24,907 nt of DNA, taken from contig CAYLVS010000002.1 in NCBI GenBank assembly GCA_964387185.1, positions 2,848-27,754 of the forward strand, given 5' to 3'. The notes under the pieces are model-generated. The model was not told where the DNA came from and made no database searches. It saw only the letters and a list, made by a program, of their open reading frames with translations. The translations under genes and the position numbers were made by a program. The first letter of the stretch is position 1. The number at the start of each line of letters is the position of its first letter. The DNA is from an uncultured Oscillospiraceae bacterium (GTDB taxonomy: Bacteria > Bacillota > Clostridia > Peptostreptococcales > Anaerovoracaceae). Shown piece after piece: positions 17,160 to 24,907 of the stretch.

Positions 17160-18308
17160 ATGATATATCTTGATAATGCTGCAACCAGCTTTCCGAAGCC
17201 AAAGTGCATGTTGTTAGAGATGGAGCGGTGCTTGCGCGATTACTGCGGAAACCCCGGAAGATCGGGTCACGGTCTGTCTATACAGACAGGCCAAGGCGTG
17301 TATGACACGAGAAGTGAAATTGCAATGCTCTTTGGCATTCAGGATGCTTCCAGAATTATATTTACAGCCAATACAACAGAAGCATTGAATATGGGTATAA
17401 AGGGGGTATTGAGTCTCGGTGACCATGTAATAACCACTGCAATGGAGCATAATTCTGTGTTGAGACCGTTAAAAGCTTTGGAATCTCTGGGTATACGGTC
17501 CAGCATTATCAACTGTGATTCGCAGGGAATGCTTGATACCACCGCGGTTGAGTCGGAAATTATGCCAAATACGCGACTCCTTGTATGCACGCATGCTTCC
17601 AATGTAACAGGAACAATTATGCCAATTGCTGAGATTGGCCGGATTGCAAAAAAGAAGGGAATTTTATTTATGGTTGATGGGGCGCAGAGTGCCGGATCGC
17701 TGAGCATTGATGTTGAAAAATTAGGAATTGATCTCCTTGCCGTTCCCGGGCACAAAGGGCTCCTGGGTCCACAAGGCACGGGATTTCTCTATGTTCGGCA
17801 GGGAATCCCCTTCAGGCATTATAAAGAAGGAGGAACCGGAACAGACTCAAAAAGTAGGAAGCAACCGTTCGAATTTCCGGAAGGCTATGAGGCCGGTACA
17901 ATTAACGCACCGGGCATTATAGGATTGGGAGCCTCCGTTAGATGGGTCAGCCAAAAAGGTATCGAGACAATTTTACAGCACGAGCAGGGGTTGATCAAGC
18001 AGCTATACGAGGATTTACAGAATATGAAACGAGTACGATTATATGGACCAAGAGACATGGAAAAGAGGTGCTCAATCATAACAATGAACATTGACAACAT
18101 AGGGTGCGAAGAAGTAGCAGGCCGACTTTGGGACGAATCCCACATAGCGGTAAGAGGCGGTTTCCACTGTGCCGGTCCGGCGCATCGCACGATCGGAACC
18201 TGGGAAACAGGTGCGGTGAGACTTAGCGTTGGACCATTTAACACCCACAAGGATGTCCTGGGAGGGGCAGATGCTATTTACAAACTGACAAAAGAGGCGT
18301 ATTATTGA
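17160..18308 (+). CDS. Cysteine desulfurase family protein (class V PLP aminotransferase, group II-like)
   Basis: 382 aa. IYLDNAATS, MEHNSVLRP, HASNVTG, VDGAQSAG, PGHKGLLGPQGTG (PLP Lys), VRGGFHCA (catalytic Cys). Confidence 0.92.
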   Translation: MIYLDNAATSFPKPKCMLLEMERCLRDYCGNPGRSGHGLSIQTGQGVYDTRSEIAMLFGIQDASRIIFTANTTEALNMGIKGVLSLGDHVITTAMEHNSVLRPLKALESLGIRSSIINCDSQGMLDTTAVESEIMPNTRLLVCTHASNVTGTIMPIAEIGRIAKKKGILFMVDGAQSAGSLSIDVEKLGIDLLAVPGHKGLLGPQGTGFLYVRQGIPFRHYKEGGTGTDSKSRKQPFEFPEGYEAGTINAPGIIGLGASVRWVSQKGIETILQHEQGLIKQLYEDLQNMKRVRLYGPRDMEKRCSIITMNIDNIGCEEVAGRLWDESHIAVRGGFHCAGPAHRTIGTWETGAVRLSVGPFNTHKDVLGGADAIYKLTKEAYY

Positions 18309-18327
18309 AACAATAAGGAGTATTGGT

Positions 18328-19443
18328 ATGCCTATTATTAATAACAAGAACTTGATGTATCAGGTCATAGAAAATATGACCAACATGGTTCGCATTATGG
18401 ACAGCGACAGCAATATTTTGTACATGAATAAAAGCATGAAAGAGGAGTTTGGGGACTTCGTTGGTAAAAAATGCCATACAATGCTGTGCAGCGATGGCAA
18501 ATGCGACACATGCATCAGTGAAATGTCCATAAAGAGCGGTCATGCCGAGATGAAGGAAGTGAGTTTCGGAGGTAGGCTGTATCGAATCATGGCGTCGCCC
18601 GCCACAGAAAAGGTGGATAGCAGCTATTCCATTGAAATATTTCAGGACATAACGGAACAAAGAAAGCTGGAAGAGCAGTATCGCAAGCACTATGAAAAAT
18701 TGAAAGACGATATTGAGTTTGCAAAGCAGGTACAGAGGAAGGCCCTTCCCCAGGATGGGGCATATTGGGGCGCAATACGAGCCTATTCTGCTTATGCGCC
18801 AAGCGAGGATCTCAGTGGCGACATTTACGACATCGTGAAAGTCGACGATGATAATTGCGTGTTTTACATAGCAGACGTATCCGGTCATGGGGTTCGTTCA
18901 TCCCTGCTGACCATGTCCCTACGCCAAACGATACGGGGAATGAAAGCGGCGGCGGCAGACCACGCTGCTGTTTTGTACGAGCTTATTGAAGGCTACCACG
19001 AACTTAATCTGGACAGAGAACAGTTCGTTTCCCTGCTATATGGCGTGTATAATAAGAAGACTAGGGGCTTATCTCTGTTCAATGCGGGACACAACTGTCT
19101 GCCGATTATATTGGAAAACGGAAAAAAAGAAAATACGAGAATTACGGAAATAAAGCTGAAAGGAATGCCCATTTGTAGTTTGCTTTCCTCACCAAATCAT
19201 GAAGTCAAAACATTTCAGATGGAAAAAGGAGATAAAATCCTGCTCTATACGGACGGCATAACGGAAGCGTTTAACAAGGACAAAAACCGGGCATTCGGCA
19301 TTTCAGGGCTAAAGAAGGTGATTCATAAATTAGGTGTGGATGAGGGCAAGGCTCTGGCAGAGGGCATTATAGACGAAGCCAAGACATTTGCGGGAGGCTC
19401 CGCCATGGACGATATGGCAGTTCTGCTATTGGAGTTGCTATAA
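18328..19443 (+). CDS. PAS-domain PP2C/SpoIIE-family (RsbU/RsbP-like) Ser/Thr phosphatase
   Basis: 371 aa. PAS-like N-terminus ending FQDITEQ, coiled coil DDIEFAKQVQRKALP, PP2C motifs SGDIYD, IADVSGHG, NAGH, LLYTDGITEA and DDMAVL. Confidence 0.9.
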   Translation: MPIINNKNLMYQVIENMTNMVRIMDSDSNILYMNKSMKEEFGDFVGKKCHTMLCSDGKCDTCISEMSIKSGHAEMKEVSFGGRLYRIMASPATEKVDSSYSIEIFQDITEQRKLEEQYRKHYEKLKDDIEFAKQVQRKALPQDGAYWGAIRAYSAYAPSEDLSGDIYDIVKVDDDNCVFYIADVSGHGVRSSLLTMSLRQTIRGMKAAAADHAAVLYELIEGYHELNLDREQFVSLLYGVYNKKTRGLSLFNAGHNCLPIILENGKKENTRITEIKLKGMPICSLLSSPNHEVKTFQMEKGDKILLYTDGITEAFNKDKNRAFGISGLKKVIHKLGVDEGKALAEGIIDEAKTFAGGSAMDDMAVLLLELL

Positions 19444-19446
19444 CAA

Positions 19447-19992
19447 CTAGTCTTTCAGGGTTTTGATTCCCTCATTGGCTAAATAATCAGCACGGTTGTT
19501 TTTCTCAGTGATGGCAACAAAATCATCCATTGTAAAATGCGGTCCATTCCACTCGACGAACTTTTCATACAAGGATTTTTTGTTGGTCTTGGGACTCTGG
19601 AGATTGACGTGGCCTTTAACCCGATAGAAAGAAATCTGATGTTGGTTGATCAGCTGAAAAAGGGCTTCCCAGAGATCGCGATTTTCAACGTCGGTCTTTT
19701 TTGAAGTTCGCCACCCGTTTTGCTGCCAATTCTCATACCATTTCTCACGAAAGCAGTTAACCAGATAAGAGCTATCAGAAAAAACAGAAATGGTTTGACC
19801 GGCTTTTTTTAAGGCCTTTAGTGCATTCAGCAGGGCCATCATCTCCATGCGATTGTTGGTGGTGTTTTCTTCTCCGCCAAAAAGCTCTTTGCTATGTTCT
19901 CCATATTCAAGAAGAGCGCCCCAGCCGCCCAAATTGGTGTCGTTTTGATTTCCGGAACAGGCTCCGTCCGTGTAAATGTTTATGGTTTTCAT
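19447..19992 (-). CDS. rnhA: Ribonuclease HI
   Basis: 181 aa. IYTDGACSGN, TTNNRMEM, FSDSSYL, VENRDLW, VKGH, NNRADYLA. AGGAGG RBS. Confidence 0.95.
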   Translation of the reverse strand: MKTINIYTDGACSGNQNDTNLGGWGALLEYGEHSKELFGGEENTTNNRMEMMALLNALKALKKAGQTISVFSDSSYLVNCFREKWYENWQQNGWRTSKKTDVENRDLWEALFQLINQHQISFYRVKGHVNLQSPKTNKKSLYEKFVEWNGPHFTMDDFVAITEKNNRADYLANEGIKTLKD

Positions 19993-20038: not shown

Positions 20039-20054
20039 GCTATCTTAAATCCTA

Positions 20055-20087
20055 CGTAATACGTTTGTAATATTAATGGTTTATACT
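20055..20087 (+). promoter_or_regulatory. WalR-like (OmpR-family) direct repeat with downstream -10
   Basis: CGTAAT-N5-TGTAAT (20055-20071), 1 mismatch to TGTWAH-N5-TGTWAH. TATACT follows 10 nt downstream (20082-20087). A second TATAAT lies at 20184-20189. Confidence 0.5.
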
Positions 20088-20216
20088 GAACTTGCTTCAG
20101 GCGTGGATTTTAAACAATGCGCTACTTATGGCATATTATAACAGACAGACCTGAGATTTGTGTTAAGTCACAAAAAAGGCAGATATAATAAGCAAAAAGA
20201 AGGGAGGAGAACGTAT

Positions 20217-20753
20217 ATGAAAAAAACAATTATGACGCTGGTATTTGTGGCAGTGTTGCTGTGCAGCACGATATTTTCCGCCGCGACATCCGACCCGGCC
20301 GTATCAATTGTTAGCCCATCCCAGACAGTAAGCGGTAGCAGTCTCCTCGTTTCCGTTAAAATGACTGCACCAAAGACTATAAAGGTCTTTGTATATGAAG
20401 AAAAGGAAAAAGTCGGCGACACTTTGGTATCTATCGATCCAACCACCGTATCAACTGAAAATTTTTCATCAAAAACCCTCTTCAGTGTCTCCGTCATCAC
20501 ACCGGAAACGTTTGAAGGCACCGGAAGTCTGCAGTTCTACAACAAGCAGATCAATGACGTTTCACCGGGACTTTATCGCATCAAGGTAGAAGTGCTCGAT
20601 GTGAACAATGCTGTCACTGCCACATCTACGCAGCGAACTGTTGTCATGCCAAAAGACAGTGAAGCCGCCAGCGGCAGCGAGATATTCCAGTCCCAGCAAA
20701 CAGGTGCGTTACAATGGGTGCAAAACCTGATAAAAAGCATCTTTAAAAACTAG
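20217..20753 (+). CDS. Secreted/surface protein of unknown function (178 aa)
   Basis: Start reassigned to ATG 20217 behind GGGAGGAG. Signal peptide MKKTIMTLVFVAVLLCSTIFSAA, beta-strand-rich body (Ig-like by pattern only), C-terminal amphipathic LQWVQNLIKSIF. Confidence 0.85.
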   Translation: MKKTIMTLVFVAVLLCSTIFSAATSDPAVSIVSPSQTVSGSSLLVSVKMTAPKTIKVFVYEEKEKVGDTLVSIDPTTVSTENFSSKTLFSVSVITPETFEGTGSLQFYNKQINDVSPGLYRIKVEVLDVNNAVTATSTQRTVVMPKDSEAASGSEIFQSQQTGALQWVQNLIKSIFKN

Positions 20754-20767
20754 GGCGGCGGACTGCC

Positions 20768-22243
20768 ATGGGTAAGCCAAAGCGGTATGTAGAGCCTGTA
20801 AAAAACATCATTTTAGTAGTATTGTTCTTAACAACAATGCTGCTTTTGTATTTTTTTTGGGGATCCCCCATGTCTGACAGTTTTCGGATAACGGATATCA
20901 TCGGTGAAGAACAGTTGGAAATCCCATCTTTCCAGGCAGTTACCCAGCCGGAGAGGATCGATGTGCACTTCGGTGAAGGCAACTATACGGTACTAGAAGA
21001 GACGGATTTTGACGCTTGGGAACAGTGCCTGCAGATGTTGCGGGACCTGGAAGCAGAAAAAGTTCAGGCTATGGAAGAAATTACTGCCCAGCAATTTGAC
21101 AAGATTATGGACTTTCGCTCCATTCTCTATCGCTTTCATTATGATATGCCTTTAGAATCTTTTTTGAAGCGATACGAACTGCAGGAGATACCGGGAGTGG
21201 ATCAGGTGGGAGCCTTTTCGCTGATTGGGTTTTCTTCCGGAAGTCCGGAAAGCCTGTTTGTTTACAGCAAGAGTAAAGGTAAATACTTTCGGGTCGTTTA
21301 CGAAGAACCCCATGTTTCAATGGATGAACTGCTTACCGCAGTTGAGGACATGCCAAGTGTGAGTTATTACCGTATTGGTACGCTGGTGGGCCGGGACGAT
21401 AATCGCACTCTGGTCCCACTCTCCTTGAATACTTCGCTGGAGGAAATCCTTTATTCGCCGGAATTTGACGACTTGGATACTGCTGAGGTGAAGGACTTTG
21501 CACGGACTTTCTTTGGGGAAAGCTTTGACTTTGTGCGAAAGATTGAAGAGAGTAAGGGTACCCATATTTACATGTATGGATACGGTGAGAAGGTTTTGAC
21601 CATTAGCGTGGAGGGTAGAGTGGAGTACAAGAACAAGGAGACACCCTTGGGAAGTCAGCAGAACTATTTTGACGCCCTAGATTCCGCCCTGAAATTTGTG
21701 GCGACCCATGGAGGATGGCAGACGGATGACAGCATGGAGATGTCTCCCGTGGTTCAATTTGCCAGTGCCGTCGAAAATGAGAAGCGGAAGGGCTATCGTT
21801 TCGTATTCGGCATGCGCCTTTTGGAAGAACCGCTGTACCCGGAAGGTAGCCATTCCATTATGGTTGAAGTGATCCATGGCCAGGTGACTCAGTATTTGCG
21901 CGATATGATAGAAGTTGAAGAAGAAGAGTTCCTGGAACAGACAGAAGGTGCCGAGAGGCAAGCCTTCTCTGCGATCAATATGATTGCACAGAACTACCCC
22001 TATATTGCATCGGTTTTATCGGAAAAGGGGCGTGACTTCAGCAACCTTACAGGTGAAGCACTTTTTGACGTCATTTCCGACTTAGTCATCTCCGTTACCA
22101 CAGGTTACATGAAACCGGAATACAGGCAAGAAGGTGAAAATGCGTTGATTCCTGCGTGGGTCGTAATGGCTGATGATGTTTTGATTTACTTTGATTTGTA
22201 TGATGCGCGGCCACTGGGGCATACAGGTCTAATGGAATCCTGA
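20768..22243 (+). CDS. yycH: YycH/WalH-like membrane-anchored two-component regulatory protein
   Basis: 491 aa. Single N-terminal TM KNIILVVLFLTTMLLLYFFW, large acidic extracytoplasmic domain, C-terminal LIPAWVV. Located upstream of yycI and walJ. Confidence 0.7.
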   Translation: MGKPKRYVEPVKNIILVVLFLTTMLLLYFFWGSPMSDSFRITDIIGEEQLEIPSFQAVTQPERIDVHFGEGNYTVLEETDFDAWEQCLQMLRDLEAEKVQAMEEITAQQFDKIMDFRSILYRFHYDMPLESFLKRYELQEIPGVDQVGAFSLIGFSSGSPESLFVYSKSKGKYFRVVYEEPHVSMDELLTAVEDMPSVSYYRIGTLVGRDDNRTLVPLSLNTSLEEILYSPEFDDLDTAEVKDFARTFFGESFDFVRKIEESKGTHIYMYGYGEKVLTISVEGRVEYKNKETPLGSQQNYFDALDSALKFVATHGGWQTDDSMEMSPVVQFASAVENEKRKGYRFVFGMRLLEEPLYPEGSHSIMVEVIHGQVTQYLRDMIEVEEEEFLEQTEGAERQAFSAINMIAQNYPYIASVLSEKGRDFSNLTGEALFDVISDLVISVTTGYMKPEYRQEGENALIPAWVVMADDVLIYFDLYDARPLGHTGLMES

Positions 22244-22253
22244 GGTAATAATA

Positions 22254-22988
22254 ATGGACTGGACAAAAGCTAAGTCAATCTTAATTGTGGCTTTATTGAT
22301 AACGAATTTGTTTCTCCTTGCAACCTACACGGTGGTAAAGGCTGACAACGGACCTACGGAAGAGGAGCTTCACGCAGAGACGATTGCTCTGCTTGAACAG
22401 AAGCAGATCTACGTGAAAGGAAGCCTCCCGACGCAACATGAGAAGATGCCGGTTTTGATGGTGGAATACGACCGTCCCGACCCGGAGATTCTTCGGCAGA
22501 GGCTGGAGGAACAGACGCCTATGGACGGAGAGTATGGATCCCGGTCAGACATTCTGAAGATGACGGAGGCCTTTCTAAAAAGCTGCGACCTGTGGGATGC
22601 TAACGTGGTTTTGAACAAAATCGAGCAGGAAGAGAGTACGATTCGAGTCTTTTATCGAAATGAATATAACGGTATTCCCGTGGAAGACAGTTATATAATT
22701 TGCACCGTGGAAGGCGGCGTCGTTACTGAGGTTGACCGACTTTGGCTCAGACCGGTGGGTTTAGGAAAGTCTAAGAAAGCTACGGTTTCTGCCTCTGCTG
22801 CTCTTATCGATCTCATGAGGAGTAAGAATGAGCGAGCTACCATCCTCGTTGAGAGTATGGAGATCGTATACTGGCTGAATCCCTCCGATTACGAGGGTGA
22901 AACAGCTATTTCCGATACGGCGTTACCGGCATGGAAGGTGACATATAACGGGGGGCAGAATATGCATGTCCCCGCATATAATGATTAA
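22254..22988 (+). CDS. yycI: YycI/WalI-like two-component regulatory protein
   Basis: 244 aa. Characteristic N-terminus MDWTKAKSILIVALLITNLFLL, C-terminal LPAWKV. Confidence 0.85.
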   Translation: MDWTKAKSILIVALLITNLFLLATYTVVKADNGPTEEELHAETIALLEQKQIYVKGSLPTQHEKMPVLMVEYDRPDPEILRQRLEEQTPMDGEYGSRSDILKMTEAFLKSCDLWDANVVLNKIEQEESTIRVFYRNEYNGIPVEDSYIICTVEGGVVTEVDRLWLRPVGLGKSKKATVSASAALIDLMRSKNERATILVESMEIVYWLNPSDYEGETAISDTALPAWKVTYNGGQNMHVPAYND

Positions 22989-22999
22989 TTAGAAATCAC

Positions 23000-23044
23000 C
23001 ATGGCAAGGGGACGTCCCCCTGCCATGAAACGTCCCCTTGTCAT
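23000..23044. repeat. GC-rich palindrome with duplicated 3' arm (two alternative hairpins)
   Basis: CATGGCAAGGGG-ACGT-CCCCCTGCCATG (23000-23027). ATGGCAAGGGGACGT (23001-23015) can alternatively pair with ACGTCCCCTTGTCAT (23030-23044). Confidence 0.75.
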
Positions 23045-23046
23045 AG

Positions 23047-23078
23047 GAATTTCACATGAATTTCACAAAATAAACACA
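23047..23078. promoter_or_regulatory. 11-bp-period direct repeat, candidate response-regulator site upstream of walJ-htrA
   Basis: GAATTTCACA at 23047-23056 and 23058-23067, third degenerate AACACA at 23073-23078, GATAAT at 23087-23092. Confidence 0.55.
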
Positions 23079-23113
23079 TTCTTATGGATAATCAGATATA
23101 GAGAGGCTTCATT

Positions 23114-23908
23114 ATGACACTAAGTTTTTGCTCCTTTTCAAGTGGTAGCAGTGGAAACTGCTATTTAGTTAAATCCGACACTACAGCAATCCTGGTGGAT
23201 GCAGGCATCAGCGCAAAAAAGATCCTAGGCGGTCTTGCCCATACGGATACCAACGACGAACAGCTGGCGGCGCTGTTGCTGACTCATGAACACAGTGATC
23301 ATATAAAGAGCTTACCCACATTGATGAAGAAACTCGACAGGCTTAAAGCTTACGCCAGTGAAGGGACTTGGGGCGCCATCGACAAGGAAATTGACCCGGC
23401 TAGAAAGCAAAGTTTTACCATAGGACAACCGTTTAAAATCGGTGACATTCGGGTAAATTCATTTCGGGTATGTCATGATGCGGTTGATCCTGTGGGGTAT
23501 TCTTTTTATGAAGGGGGAAGACAGATTAGCATCATAACGGATACGGGCTGTGTAAAAGAAGATATGATGGATCAAATTCGGGATGCAGATCTTTTAGTAC
23601 TGGAAGCCAACCACGATGTGGACATGCTGAAGATTGGCAGGTATCCTTGGTTCCTCAAAAAGAGAATCATGAGTGATTATGGGCACTTGTCCAACGAATC
23701 AGCGGCAAGGATGTTGGTAAGAATACTGTCTGAGAGTGAGAAGCGACGCAGGATCCTGCTGGCACACCTGAGCAGAGAAAACAATTTCCCCGAGATGGCC
23801 TATCAGACGGTAAAAAACATACTCGAGGAAGAAGAGTATTACATAGGTAAGCACGTAGAACTTAGCACAATTGTAAGGGATGAGGTGAGCATCCTCTATC
23901 AAGTTTAA
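23114..23908 (+). CDS. walJ: YycJ/WalJ metallo-beta-lactamase-fold hydrolase
   Basis: 264 aa. SSGSSGNCY, VDAGIS, THEHSDH, CHDAVDP, LEANHDVDML..YPWFLKKRI...GHLSN, LAHLSRENN. Confidence 0.92.
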   Translation: MTLSFCSFSSGSSGNCYLVKSDTTAILVDAGISAKKILGGLAHTDTNDEQLAALLLTHEHSDHIKSLPTLMKKLDRLKAYASEGTWGAIDKEIDPARKQSFTIGQPFKIGDIRVNSFRVCHDAVDPVGYSFYEGGRQISIITDTGCVKEDMMDQIRDADLLVLEANHDVDMLKIGRYPWFLKKRIMSDYGHLSNESAARMLVRILSESEKRRRILLAHLSRENNFPEMAYQTVKNILEEEEYYIGKHVELSTIVRDEVSILYQV

Positions 23909-23931
23909 TGACGGAATAGGGGGAATTGACT

Positions 23932-24907
23932 ATGGATGACAGTAGAATCATTTACGACACAGAAGACGGCCAGCCCAATTTTATACTTATGAACAATGAC
24001 AAAAATGTGGAGAAAGAGAAAAGTCAGGAAGAGCCGGTTCAGAGAGAGCAATATAGCAATGAATTTAGAGGACCTGAAGCTGTGGCCGCACAACCGCTGA
24101 AACCACCAAAACCACCAAAGAAGAAGGGATGGTTTACGAAGTTTGTTGCGGTAGTGCTCATTGTAATACTGTCCGGTAGTGCCGGCTTCATAGGAGGAGT
24201 TGCTGCTGTGGAGTATAGAGGTAGCAACAATGTTCCCGCCGGAACAGGAGATTCGATTACCATTAACCCCGCAGATCATGTGAATACAGCGGAAGCTGTT
24301 GCGGCGAAAGTAATTCCGTCCGTTGTGGGAATCAGTACCACGACGGAAGTGGTCCGGCAGAATATCTTTGGCATGCAGCGGGGTGAGCTGGTGTCCGGCG
24401 TTGGGACCGGCTTCATCGTCCATGAGGATGGCTATATTGTGACCAATTCCCATGTAGTGAATGACGGCAGCGCAAAAACAATTATTGTGCAGTTGACAGA
24501 CGGGCGTGAGTTGCAGGGCACGGTGCTCTGGAGCGATGCCTCCATGGATCTGGCAATGGTCAAAGTTGATGCAAGCAATTTGACGGCAGCTGAACTTGGG
24601 GACTCGGACGAAGTGAATATCGGAGCTTATGCGGTAGCTATTGGAAATCCATTTGGGTTGGTTTTTGACCGAAGCGTGACGCAGGGTGTTATCAGCGGTT
24701 TGAACCGGACAATTACCGTAGGAAGTAGCACCCAATCGGTTACTATGGAAGGCCTGATCCAGACAGATGCCTCTATCAACTCGGGGAACAGCGGCGGGCC
24801 GCTTTTGAACAGTCAGGGGCAGGTAATCGGTATCAACTCGGCAAAGGCGGCATCCGGCGAGGGCCTTGGTTTTGCCATTCCCATCAATACAGCCAAGCCT
24901 ATTATAG
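23932..24907 (+). CDS. htrA: HtrA/DegP-family serine protease (partial, runs off window end; absent from ORF track)
   Basis: Manual translation from ATG 23932 (AGGGGG RBS): cytoplasmic N-terminus, TM FVAVVLIVILSGSAGFIGGVAAV, GTGFIV..GYIVTNSHVV (His), MDLAMVKV (Asp), QTDASINSGNSGGPL (Ser), GLGFAIP. Confidence 0.96.
   Translation, partial: MDDSRIIYDTEDGQPNFILMNNDKNVEKEKSQEEPVQREQYSNEFRGPEAVAAQPLKPPKPPKKKGWFTKFVAVVLIVILSGSAGFIGGVAAVEYRGSNNVPAGTGDSITINPADHVNTAEAVAAKVIPSVVGISTTTEVVRQNIFGMQRGELVSGVGTGFIVHEDGYIVTNSHVVNDGSAKTIIVQLTDGRELQGTVLWSDASMDLAMVKVDASNLTAAELGDSDEVNIGAYAVAIGNPFGLVFDRSVTQGVISGLNRTITVGSSTQSVTMEGLIQTDASINSGNSGGPLLNSQGQVIGINSAKAASGEGLGFAIPINTAKPII

Follow-up and report, generated by a model that had tools for sequence, protein, structure and literature searches.

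The 24.9-kb window analysed here, that is, the whole stretch of DNA presented above, represents the oriC region of a Clostridia metagenome-assembled genome (MAG) and ends in five genes, p178-yycH-yycI-walJ-htrA, of which the last four correspond to the accessory genes of the wal cell-wall locus and the first codes for a 178-amino acid (aa) secreted protein, p178. Comparison with related genomes supports well the interpretation that these genes form one half of a split wal locus: an accessory operon that has kept a WalR-type promoter and of which p178 is the conserved first gene, with the genes for the response regulator WalR and the histidine kinase WalK located elsewhere in the genome. The promoter with its WalR box in front of p178 is a feature that the original prediction, made from the letters of this DNA alone, had missed. 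The gene calls, their order and coordinates, the divergent rnhA gene and the lack of a kinase or regulator gene in the window are all confirmed, no histidine kinase or response regulator being encoded among the open reading frames of at least 100 aa in the window.

The position of p178 is conserved well beyond this genome. In a profile survey of 301 genomes of the order, 185 had a match to YycH and 66 a match to p178, and in approximately 58 of the latter the p178 match lies directly upstream of yycH, the rest being contig breaks, matches to the signal peptide only or uncheckable cases. Every clear p178 profile match in the order is found at this single position. The order p178-yycH-yycI-walJ-htrA is retained, as far as the contigs extend, in all 19 fetched related loci with a real p178 match, and is not a chance juxtaposition. 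All 20 loci from nine sister families have the arrangement walR-walK-(secreted protein of 165-380 aa)-yycH-yycI-walJ-htrA, many with one inserted gene before walJ, and a homologous small gene is also present in most of 20 loci from other Clostridia orders, the small proteins of these orders aligning with the p178 family in hhalign with a probability of 97.7% (E 1.7e-12). The p178 stop codon is located 14 nt upstream of yycH in the window, the gap between the two genes is 14-20 nt in most family loci, and the small gene-yycH order persists over at least 17 families in several Clostridia orders. In one sister family, f2 (L050, L052, L053, L059), the small protein is 278-379 aa in length, with a long acidic and partly helical insert splitting its beta-sandwich.

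The linkage of the 178-aa gene to yycHI that was originally envisaged is thus found in relatives, both within the order and in the sister families. The accompanying proposal that the protein occupies the position of walRK does not hold: since a homologous gene sits between walK and yycH in the unsplit loci, p178 is not a replacement for walRK. On the evidence of these comparisons it is instead an old, class-wide member of the clostridial wal locus and ancestral to it. Comparison shows the ancestral layout in the Clostridia as walR-walK, a WalR-type repeat, 10 nt, a -10 hexamer, the small immunoglobulin (Ig)-like gene, yycH, yycI, often murA, walJ and htrA, and it likewise shows that in the family of this MAG and in the sister family f8 the locus has been cut exactly between walK and the promoter.

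The direct repeat tentatively assigned to WalR (Table 1) differs at one position from TGTWAH-N5-TGTWAH, the consensus that PMC9210968 quotes for WalR of B. subtilis. It lies inside the 224-nt gap between rnhA and p178 and is the only match in the window with no more than one mismatch, approximately 0.025 such matches being expected in this gap from shuffled sequences. Of 20 split loci, 19 have the same repeat in the same orientation ahead of p178; the repeat is also found between the walK stop codon and the small gene in all 20 contiguous loci of the sister families, and in 14 of the 20 loci of other Clostridia orders, and in many relatives the consensus is matched perfectly at this position. 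An exception is family f37 (L074, L075), which yielded no box downstream of walK. When 30 loci are aligned on the box, TATAAT or TATACT follows exactly 10 nt after the repeat in 27 of them and 11 nt after it in two more, while a tyTTAAa element occurs at a fixed position upstream, giving the aligned consensus tyTTAAa-N5-YGTAAY-N5-TGTAAT-N10-TATAAT. The corresponding TCTTAAA element of the window may represent a third degenerate half-site. There is no -35 hexamer, the repeat occupying its usual place. Pho-box promoters, in which a direct repeat for an OmpR-family regulator replaces the -35 element, have the same geometry, suggesting that the operon is activated by a regulator of this family. 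Regulation of the divergent rnhA gene by the box was considered and ruled out, as loci in which rnhA is co-directional or missing (L039, L036) still have the box in front of p178. As the accessory genes have a WalR-type promoter of their own even in the unsplit loci, the rearrangement would have parted two already distinct units. A generic scan of promoters and terminators remained at the shuffled background (13 sites versus 8.2 ± 3.1) and missed the conserved promoter.

The 1.98-Mb genome contains only four copies of the strict form of the box, YGTAAY-N5-TGTAAY, each of them in an intergenic region upstream of a gene. These four boxes precede p178, an ftsE-ftsX-PcsB-like set (coiled coil and M23 domains), a LysM-G5-M23 peptidase and a Bmp lipoprotein, and an SLH-CAP wall protein has a looser form of the box in front of its gene. 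The classic targets of WalR or VicR include peptidoglycan hydrolases and FtsEX-PcsB. The fit of the motif to the B. subtilis consensus, together with the wall genes among its genomic sites, indicates WalR as the probable regulator. Candidate WalR regulon sites with perfect boxes are located at C80 (3707-4599), C90 (5049-6483), C50 (4606-5835) and C11 (12319-13470), upstream of the ftsE-ftsX-PcsB-like M23 genes, the LysM-G5-M23 peptidase, the Bmp/PnrA lipoprotein and the SLH-CAP protein, and the box region of the Bmp/PnrA lipoprotein contains three tandem half-sites.

The original prediction had offered a relocation of walRK as one explanation and a search of the genome with WalK and WalR models as a way to check it. 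Both are found: the best WalK-like/WalR-like pair of the genome is encoded on contig C15 of the same MAG, so that walK, which is adjacent to yycH in the nine sister families, is separated from it here. The 604-aa C15 kinase matches HK_WalK (NF033092) over its full length (positions 3-594) with 535 bits, as against 394 bits for the next family, displays the architecture transmembrane helix, outer domain, transmembrane helix, HAMP, PAS, HisKA and HATPase, and has VicK (4i5s) as its best match in the PDB. The 232-aa regulator encoded directly upstream of it scores 326 bits with the YycF model. Many further histidine kinases are encoded in the genome. The C15 neighbourhood comprises an M23 peptidase gene, walR, walK, a repeat-rich gap, yabP, yabQ, divIC, rnmV, ksgA and an LtaS-like gene. 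The gap consists of approximately 900 bp of non-coding sequence downstream of walK (C15 11440-12330) and includes two direct copies of approximately 95 bp (gatagttgtacaggttatcaattgaaatgtcataacc...), repeated 'gattgtaattgcgtcccggcgtgacac' units and two runs of N; an Rfam search of this region gave no match.

In five relatives belonging to five genera, walK and p178 are encoded on opposite strands of one contig at a distance of 40-72 kb; dnaA lies in the interval, and both genes are transcribed away from it. A single inversion that spans oriC and has one of its breakpoints between walK and p178 would give this layout, and the separation of walRK from p178 may thus be ascribed to an inversion across oriC. 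In one deep-branching genus the order walR-walK-divIC-rnmV-ksgA-ltaS-...-rnhA-p178 is found on a single strand, so that the rearrangement may have taken more than one step. Among the 25 genus-level genomes of the family covered by the searches for WalK, YycH and p178, all three are present in ten, WalK and YycH only in one and none of the three in 14; WalK without YycH, or YycH without WalK, is found in none of the 25, although at the WalK search threshold (E <=1e-100) a divergent kinase could be missed and related genomes are not independent. This pattern suggests that the unlinked halves of the wal system are kept or lost together in the family. Approximately half of the family genera, mostly with genomes of 1.1-2 Mb, lack a close WalK ortholog, YycH and a p178 match alike.

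The p178 protein itself has no match in Pfam or NCBIfam. Its sole hydrophobic segment comprises residues 1-26, and no second transmembrane segment follows. The alignment of the p178 family shows conserved small residues at positions -3 and -1 and a D-P after them; this small-x-small motif and its D-P suggest cleavage by signal peptidase I, and no typical lipobox is present. An AlphaFold model built from a 25-sequence alignment (mean predicted local distance difference test score, pLDDT, 82) shows a hydrophobic helix at the N-terminus and a predicted Ig-like beta-sandwich, followed by a disordered, low-confidence linker (residues 150-162) and a C-terminal amphipathic helix. Foldseek comparison of the model returned only generic Ig or E-set folds (TM-score 0.3-0.4), and the p178 profile retrieved one marginal bacterial Ig domain from the PDB (E 0.016). 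Relatives of p178 have sub-threshold matches to Big_7, InlK_D3 and Glucodextran_B, with the exception of P0053, whose 25.3-bit match to InlK_D3 is marginally over the cut-off of 25. A search of the ESM Atlas with p178 gave only clusters named 'hypothetical protein', while its profile matched 135 representatives at E <=1e-10 in a library of 1.8 billion proteins, most of them 150-250 aa in length, and also matched repeats in giant Ig-repeat proteins. The hydrophobic moment of the C-terminal helix is 0.55, a value reached by only two of 123 internal 14-mers; its motif is conserved to the last residues in the p178 family and a comparable helix occurs in distant homologues. The possibility that p178 is a split-off piece of YycH was ruled out, the clostridial YycH being of full length (approximately 480 aa) and matching the whole Bacillus fold.

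The assignments of YycH and YycI are upheld by profile searches, both scoring above the Pfam cut-offs by a small margin: YycH has 35 bits with PF07435 (cut-off 27; residues 10-324) and YycI has 41.1 bits with PF09648 (cut-off 29.7) over almost its full length. In a six-frame search of the genome YycH gave only 23 bits with PF07435. Profiles of the clostridial YycH and YycI alignments retrieved no YycH or YycI entry from the PDB, even at E 10, and because sequence profiles missed the solved Bacillus structures YycH was modelled for a comparison of folds. The two best Foldseek matches of the resulting AlphaFold model (14-sequence alignment; pLDDT 82.8; predicted template modelling score 0.80) are B. 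subtilis YycH structures (9a5d_B, E 2.5e-18; 2fgt, E 1.1e-13), with target TM-scores of 0.61-0.66; the third is YpeB (E 8e-06), and beyond YycH no structure reached E 1e-6. The transmembrane helices of YycH and YycI comprise residues 7-35 and 4-30, respectively, and the YycI start MDWTKAKT is conserved in the alignment of its family. The metallo-beta-lactamase (MBL)-fold hydrolase holds the walJ position in all related loci compared; no WalJ-specific model matched it and no sequence match was found in the PDB. The truncated HtrA scores 311 bits with NF047968, below the cut-off of 470 because the gene is cut at residue 327; its transmembrane helix comprises residues 68-96, and its PDZ part would lie past the contig end.

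In the proposed circuit, phosphorylated WalR would bind the repeat in place of a -35 element and activate the operon, while YycH and YycI would dampen WalK as in Bacillus. Activation of the operon by WalR and dampening of WalK by its products would together make up a negative feedback loop, and such a loop would keep the two separated halves coupled. Export of p178 and cleavage of its signal peptide would leave a mature beta-sandwich of approximately 150 aa, which the C-terminal amphipathic helix would hold at the membrane or on the outer domains of YycH, YycI or WalK, and there p178 would tune or feed a signal to WalK. We infer for p178 this role of a third extracytoplasmic component. Overall, it is considered probable that WalR activates the accessory operon, that the operon feeds back on WalK and that p178 is this third component. 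A more far-reaching form of the proposal is put forward only tentatively: the Clostridia may possess an extracytoplasmic sensing unit of four parts, made up of YycH, YycI, the outer domain of WalK and, docked by its C-terminal amphipathic helix, the small Ig-like protein, which would deliver or gate a wall-derived signal. In this unit WalR itself would induce the whole accessory set, providing a built-in negative feedback that Bacilli lack.

Several observations weigh against the feedback circuit. That WalR binds, where transcription starts and which sign the regulation has are all deduced, and the box of the window has C at its first position, a mismatch to the consensus. For Bacillus, Staphylococcus and C. 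difficile, a lack of autoregulation of the wal operon is reported (PMC4801191, PMC9210968), and feedback of WalR on the accessory genes therefore has no precedent. A direct signalling role for p178 is not implied by analogy either, because YycH and YycI act through their transmembrane helices and the mature p178 has none. One member of the family (G198) has WalK and YycH with no p178 match, and in a locus from another order (L069, genome G378) yycH directly follows walK, with neither small gene nor box, in a Bacillus-like arrangement. The C15 kinase and regulator stay below the equivalog cut-offs of 725 bits (NF033092) and 340 bits (YycF), those NCBI models being trained on Bacilli. The MAG is 83% complete, with walRK and the window on separate contigs. 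Expression is weakly supported by metatranscriptome contigs near-identical to the window, which include parts of p178, of the region around its stop codon, of yycI and of the junction between walJ and htrA; these contigs are undirected fragments with possible carry-over of DNA.

The main rival to the feedback circuit, in which p178 is an output of the WalR regulon that merely shares its promoter with yycHI, for example as a secreted wall-associated protein that binds or inhibits a peptidoglycan hydrolase or as a structural wall protein, is unlikely yet has to be taken seriously. It is favoured by the location of p178 as the first gene after a WalR-type box, as typical WalR targets are secreted wall proteins and the box here also precedes M23 peptidases and the SLH-CAP wall protein, and it accords with the absence of a transmembrane helix from the mature protein, the resemblance of its domain to repeats of giant surface proteins and the retention of YycH without p178 in G198 and G378. 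An unrelated output gene would, however, be expected to move or to occur elsewhere, whereas all clear p178 matches are at one position, the gap to yycH is short in most family loci, and the gene order is kept over at least 17 families in several orders.

Far less probable is the alternative that YycH and YycI work with some other kinase or belong to an envelope complex that needs no kinase, which the original prediction had entertained given that no kinase is encoded in the window, and to which the many other histidine kinases of the genome would lend candidates. A WalK/WalR pair is present in the genome and its counterparts are contiguous with yycHI in nine sister families, WalK and YycH co-occur perfectly in the 25 family genomes, and the module is headed by a WalR-type box, all of which speak against it. 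That the separation of walRK is an artefact of metagenome assembly or binning is hardly credible. The fragmentation of the MAG into 347 contigs, its estimated contamination of 2.7%, the N gaps in C15 and the end of the window at a contig end could be cited in its favour, but the window runs without a break from spo0J through the desulfurase, PAS-PP2C and rnhA genes to p178, the same order is found in at least ten independent assemblies, among them a closed 2.6-Mb genome, and the five relatives described above have walRK on the p178 contig itself. 

The coordinates of the features are collected in Table 1. Upstream of them, the window contains gyrA and gyrB (on the - strand), dnaA, dnaN, recF, rnpA, yidC, jag, mnmE, mnmG, rsmG, noc, soj and spo0J, followed by genes for a class-V aminotransferase (desulfurase-like) and a PAS-PP2C phosphatase, rnhA (- strand) and then the p178 module. 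The aminotransferase and phosphatase pair (17160-19443) is found upstream of rnhA-p178 in most same-family relatives with a split locus; some of these lack one gene of the pair, and only the PP2C gene is found in the sister family f8. A longer p178 frame begins with GTG at 20160. The palindrome in the 125-nt gap between yycI and walJ has no T tract downstream on the + strand; its GGGGACG core recalls repeats on contig C15, and it may represent a dispersed repeat or a boundary between transcripts. In many loci of the order (L044-L062), and in those of other Clostridia orders (L070-L073, L076, L077, L084 and others), a gene of approximately 420 codons with a MurA-like N-terminus (...GGxxLxGxVxISGAKNA...) is located between yycI and walJ; this gene is absent from the window.

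Table 1. Coordinates of the p178 module, its predicted promoter and adjoining features in the window.
Feature	Position	Strand	Description
rnhA	19447-19992	-	PF00075, 117 bits; divergent from p178
TCTTAAA element	20043-20049	+	approximately one helical turn upstream of the direct repeat
WalR-type direct repeat	20055-20071	+	CGTAAT-N5-TGTAAT; one mismatch to TGTWAH-N5-TGTWAH
Predicted -10 hexamer	20082-20087	+	TATACT; exactly 10 nt after the repeat
p178	20217-20753	+	178 aa from ATG; secreted Ig-like protein; first gene of the operon
p178 signal peptide	20217-20285	+	residues 1-23; predicted cleavage after S-A-A
p178 beta-sandwich (Ig-like)	20301-20648	+	residues 29-144; block-mean pLDDT 75-98, mostly >90
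p178 C-terminal amphipathic helix	20706-20741	+	residues 164-175 (model)
yycH (walH)	20768-22243	+	PF07435; N-terminal transmembrane helix and three-domain extracytoplasmic part
yycI (walI)	22254-22988	+	PF09648; N-terminal transmembrane helix
Palindrome	22999-23028		13-bp stem (CCATGGCAAGGGGACGTCCCCCTGCCATG); inside the yycI-walJ gap
MBL-fold hydrolase, walJ position	23114-23908	+	Lactamase_B_2, 77 bits
htrA	23926-24906	+	membrane-anchored serine protease; Trypsin_2, 117 bits; cut by contig end

WalRK is the essential cell-wall homeostasis system of the Bacillota and a proposed antibiotic target, and its accessory proteins have, to our knowledge, been studied only in Bacilli. If the interpretation given here is true, the wal system of the Clostridia has a conserved additional component and a promoter under autoregulation, neither of them predicted by models based on Bacillus and Staphylococcus, and the picture of WalK control in anaerobes, including relatives of gut and oral species, would change. 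The split loci represent a natural experiment, in which the two halves are separated yet kept or lost together with the WalR site still shared. In a phylogenomic study of wal loci, Clostridia were used solely as the outgroup. Full-text literature searches found no paper on a gene between walK and yycH, a WalR site before yycH or a split wal locus.

Two well-known systems resemble the proposed circuit in mechanism. The pho box of PhoB is a direct repeat with an 11-bp periodicity that lies 10 bp upstream of the -10 element and replaces the -35 element, while in feedback of the CpxP-CpxA type the exported protein switched on by a two-component system acts in turn on the kinase of that system. The likeness is one of mechanism only, as the regulators and proteins differ and p178 has no homology to CpxP, and both activation and feedback would have to operate here as inferred for the analogy to apply. 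Among wal loci, that of B. subtilis, walR-walK-yycH(walH)-yycI(walI)-walJ-htrC, agrees in five protein types, in their relative order and in lying near oriC, and the YycH fold and the single N-terminal transmembrane anchors of YycH and YycI are likewise shared. The reading frames of walK and yycH overlap in Bacillus, with no gene separating them. The window differs in its extra secreted Ig-like gene before yycH, its WalR-type box promoter and the location of walRK on the other replichore. The accessory genes of Bacillus are co-transcribed with walRK and reported not to be autoregulated (PMC4801191).

If the MAG belongs to the Anaerovoracaceae, a placement based on the names that sources give to close homologues of its proteins ('Anaerovoracaceae bacterium' or 'Clostridiales bacterium'), it shares the NCBI order Peptostreptococcales with C. 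difficile. Both have a wal system with a lineage-specific exported accessory protein of putative role. The C. difficile operon is walA-walR-walK-truA2, in which WalA, encoded upstream of walR, is a beta-propeller lipoprotein and WalK lacks a cytoplasmic PAS domain; the main text of that study does not mention YycH, WalH, WalI or WalJ (PMC9210968). Unlike its C. difficile counterpart, the C15 WalK has a PAS domain. For p178, in contrast to WalA, the model gives an Ig-like sandwich, the signal peptide is of the A-x-A type, no typical lipobox is present and the gene lies upstream of yycH; a WalA-like lipoprotein was accordingly ruled out as an identity for p178, the fold, the type of signal peptide and the position all being different. 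In S. aureus, walRKHI is accompanied by a separately transcribed walJ (PMC4801191). This provides a precedent for a wal locus in more than one transcription unit, with the difference that in the split locus described here the break comes after walK and the WalR-type box belongs to the accessory unit.

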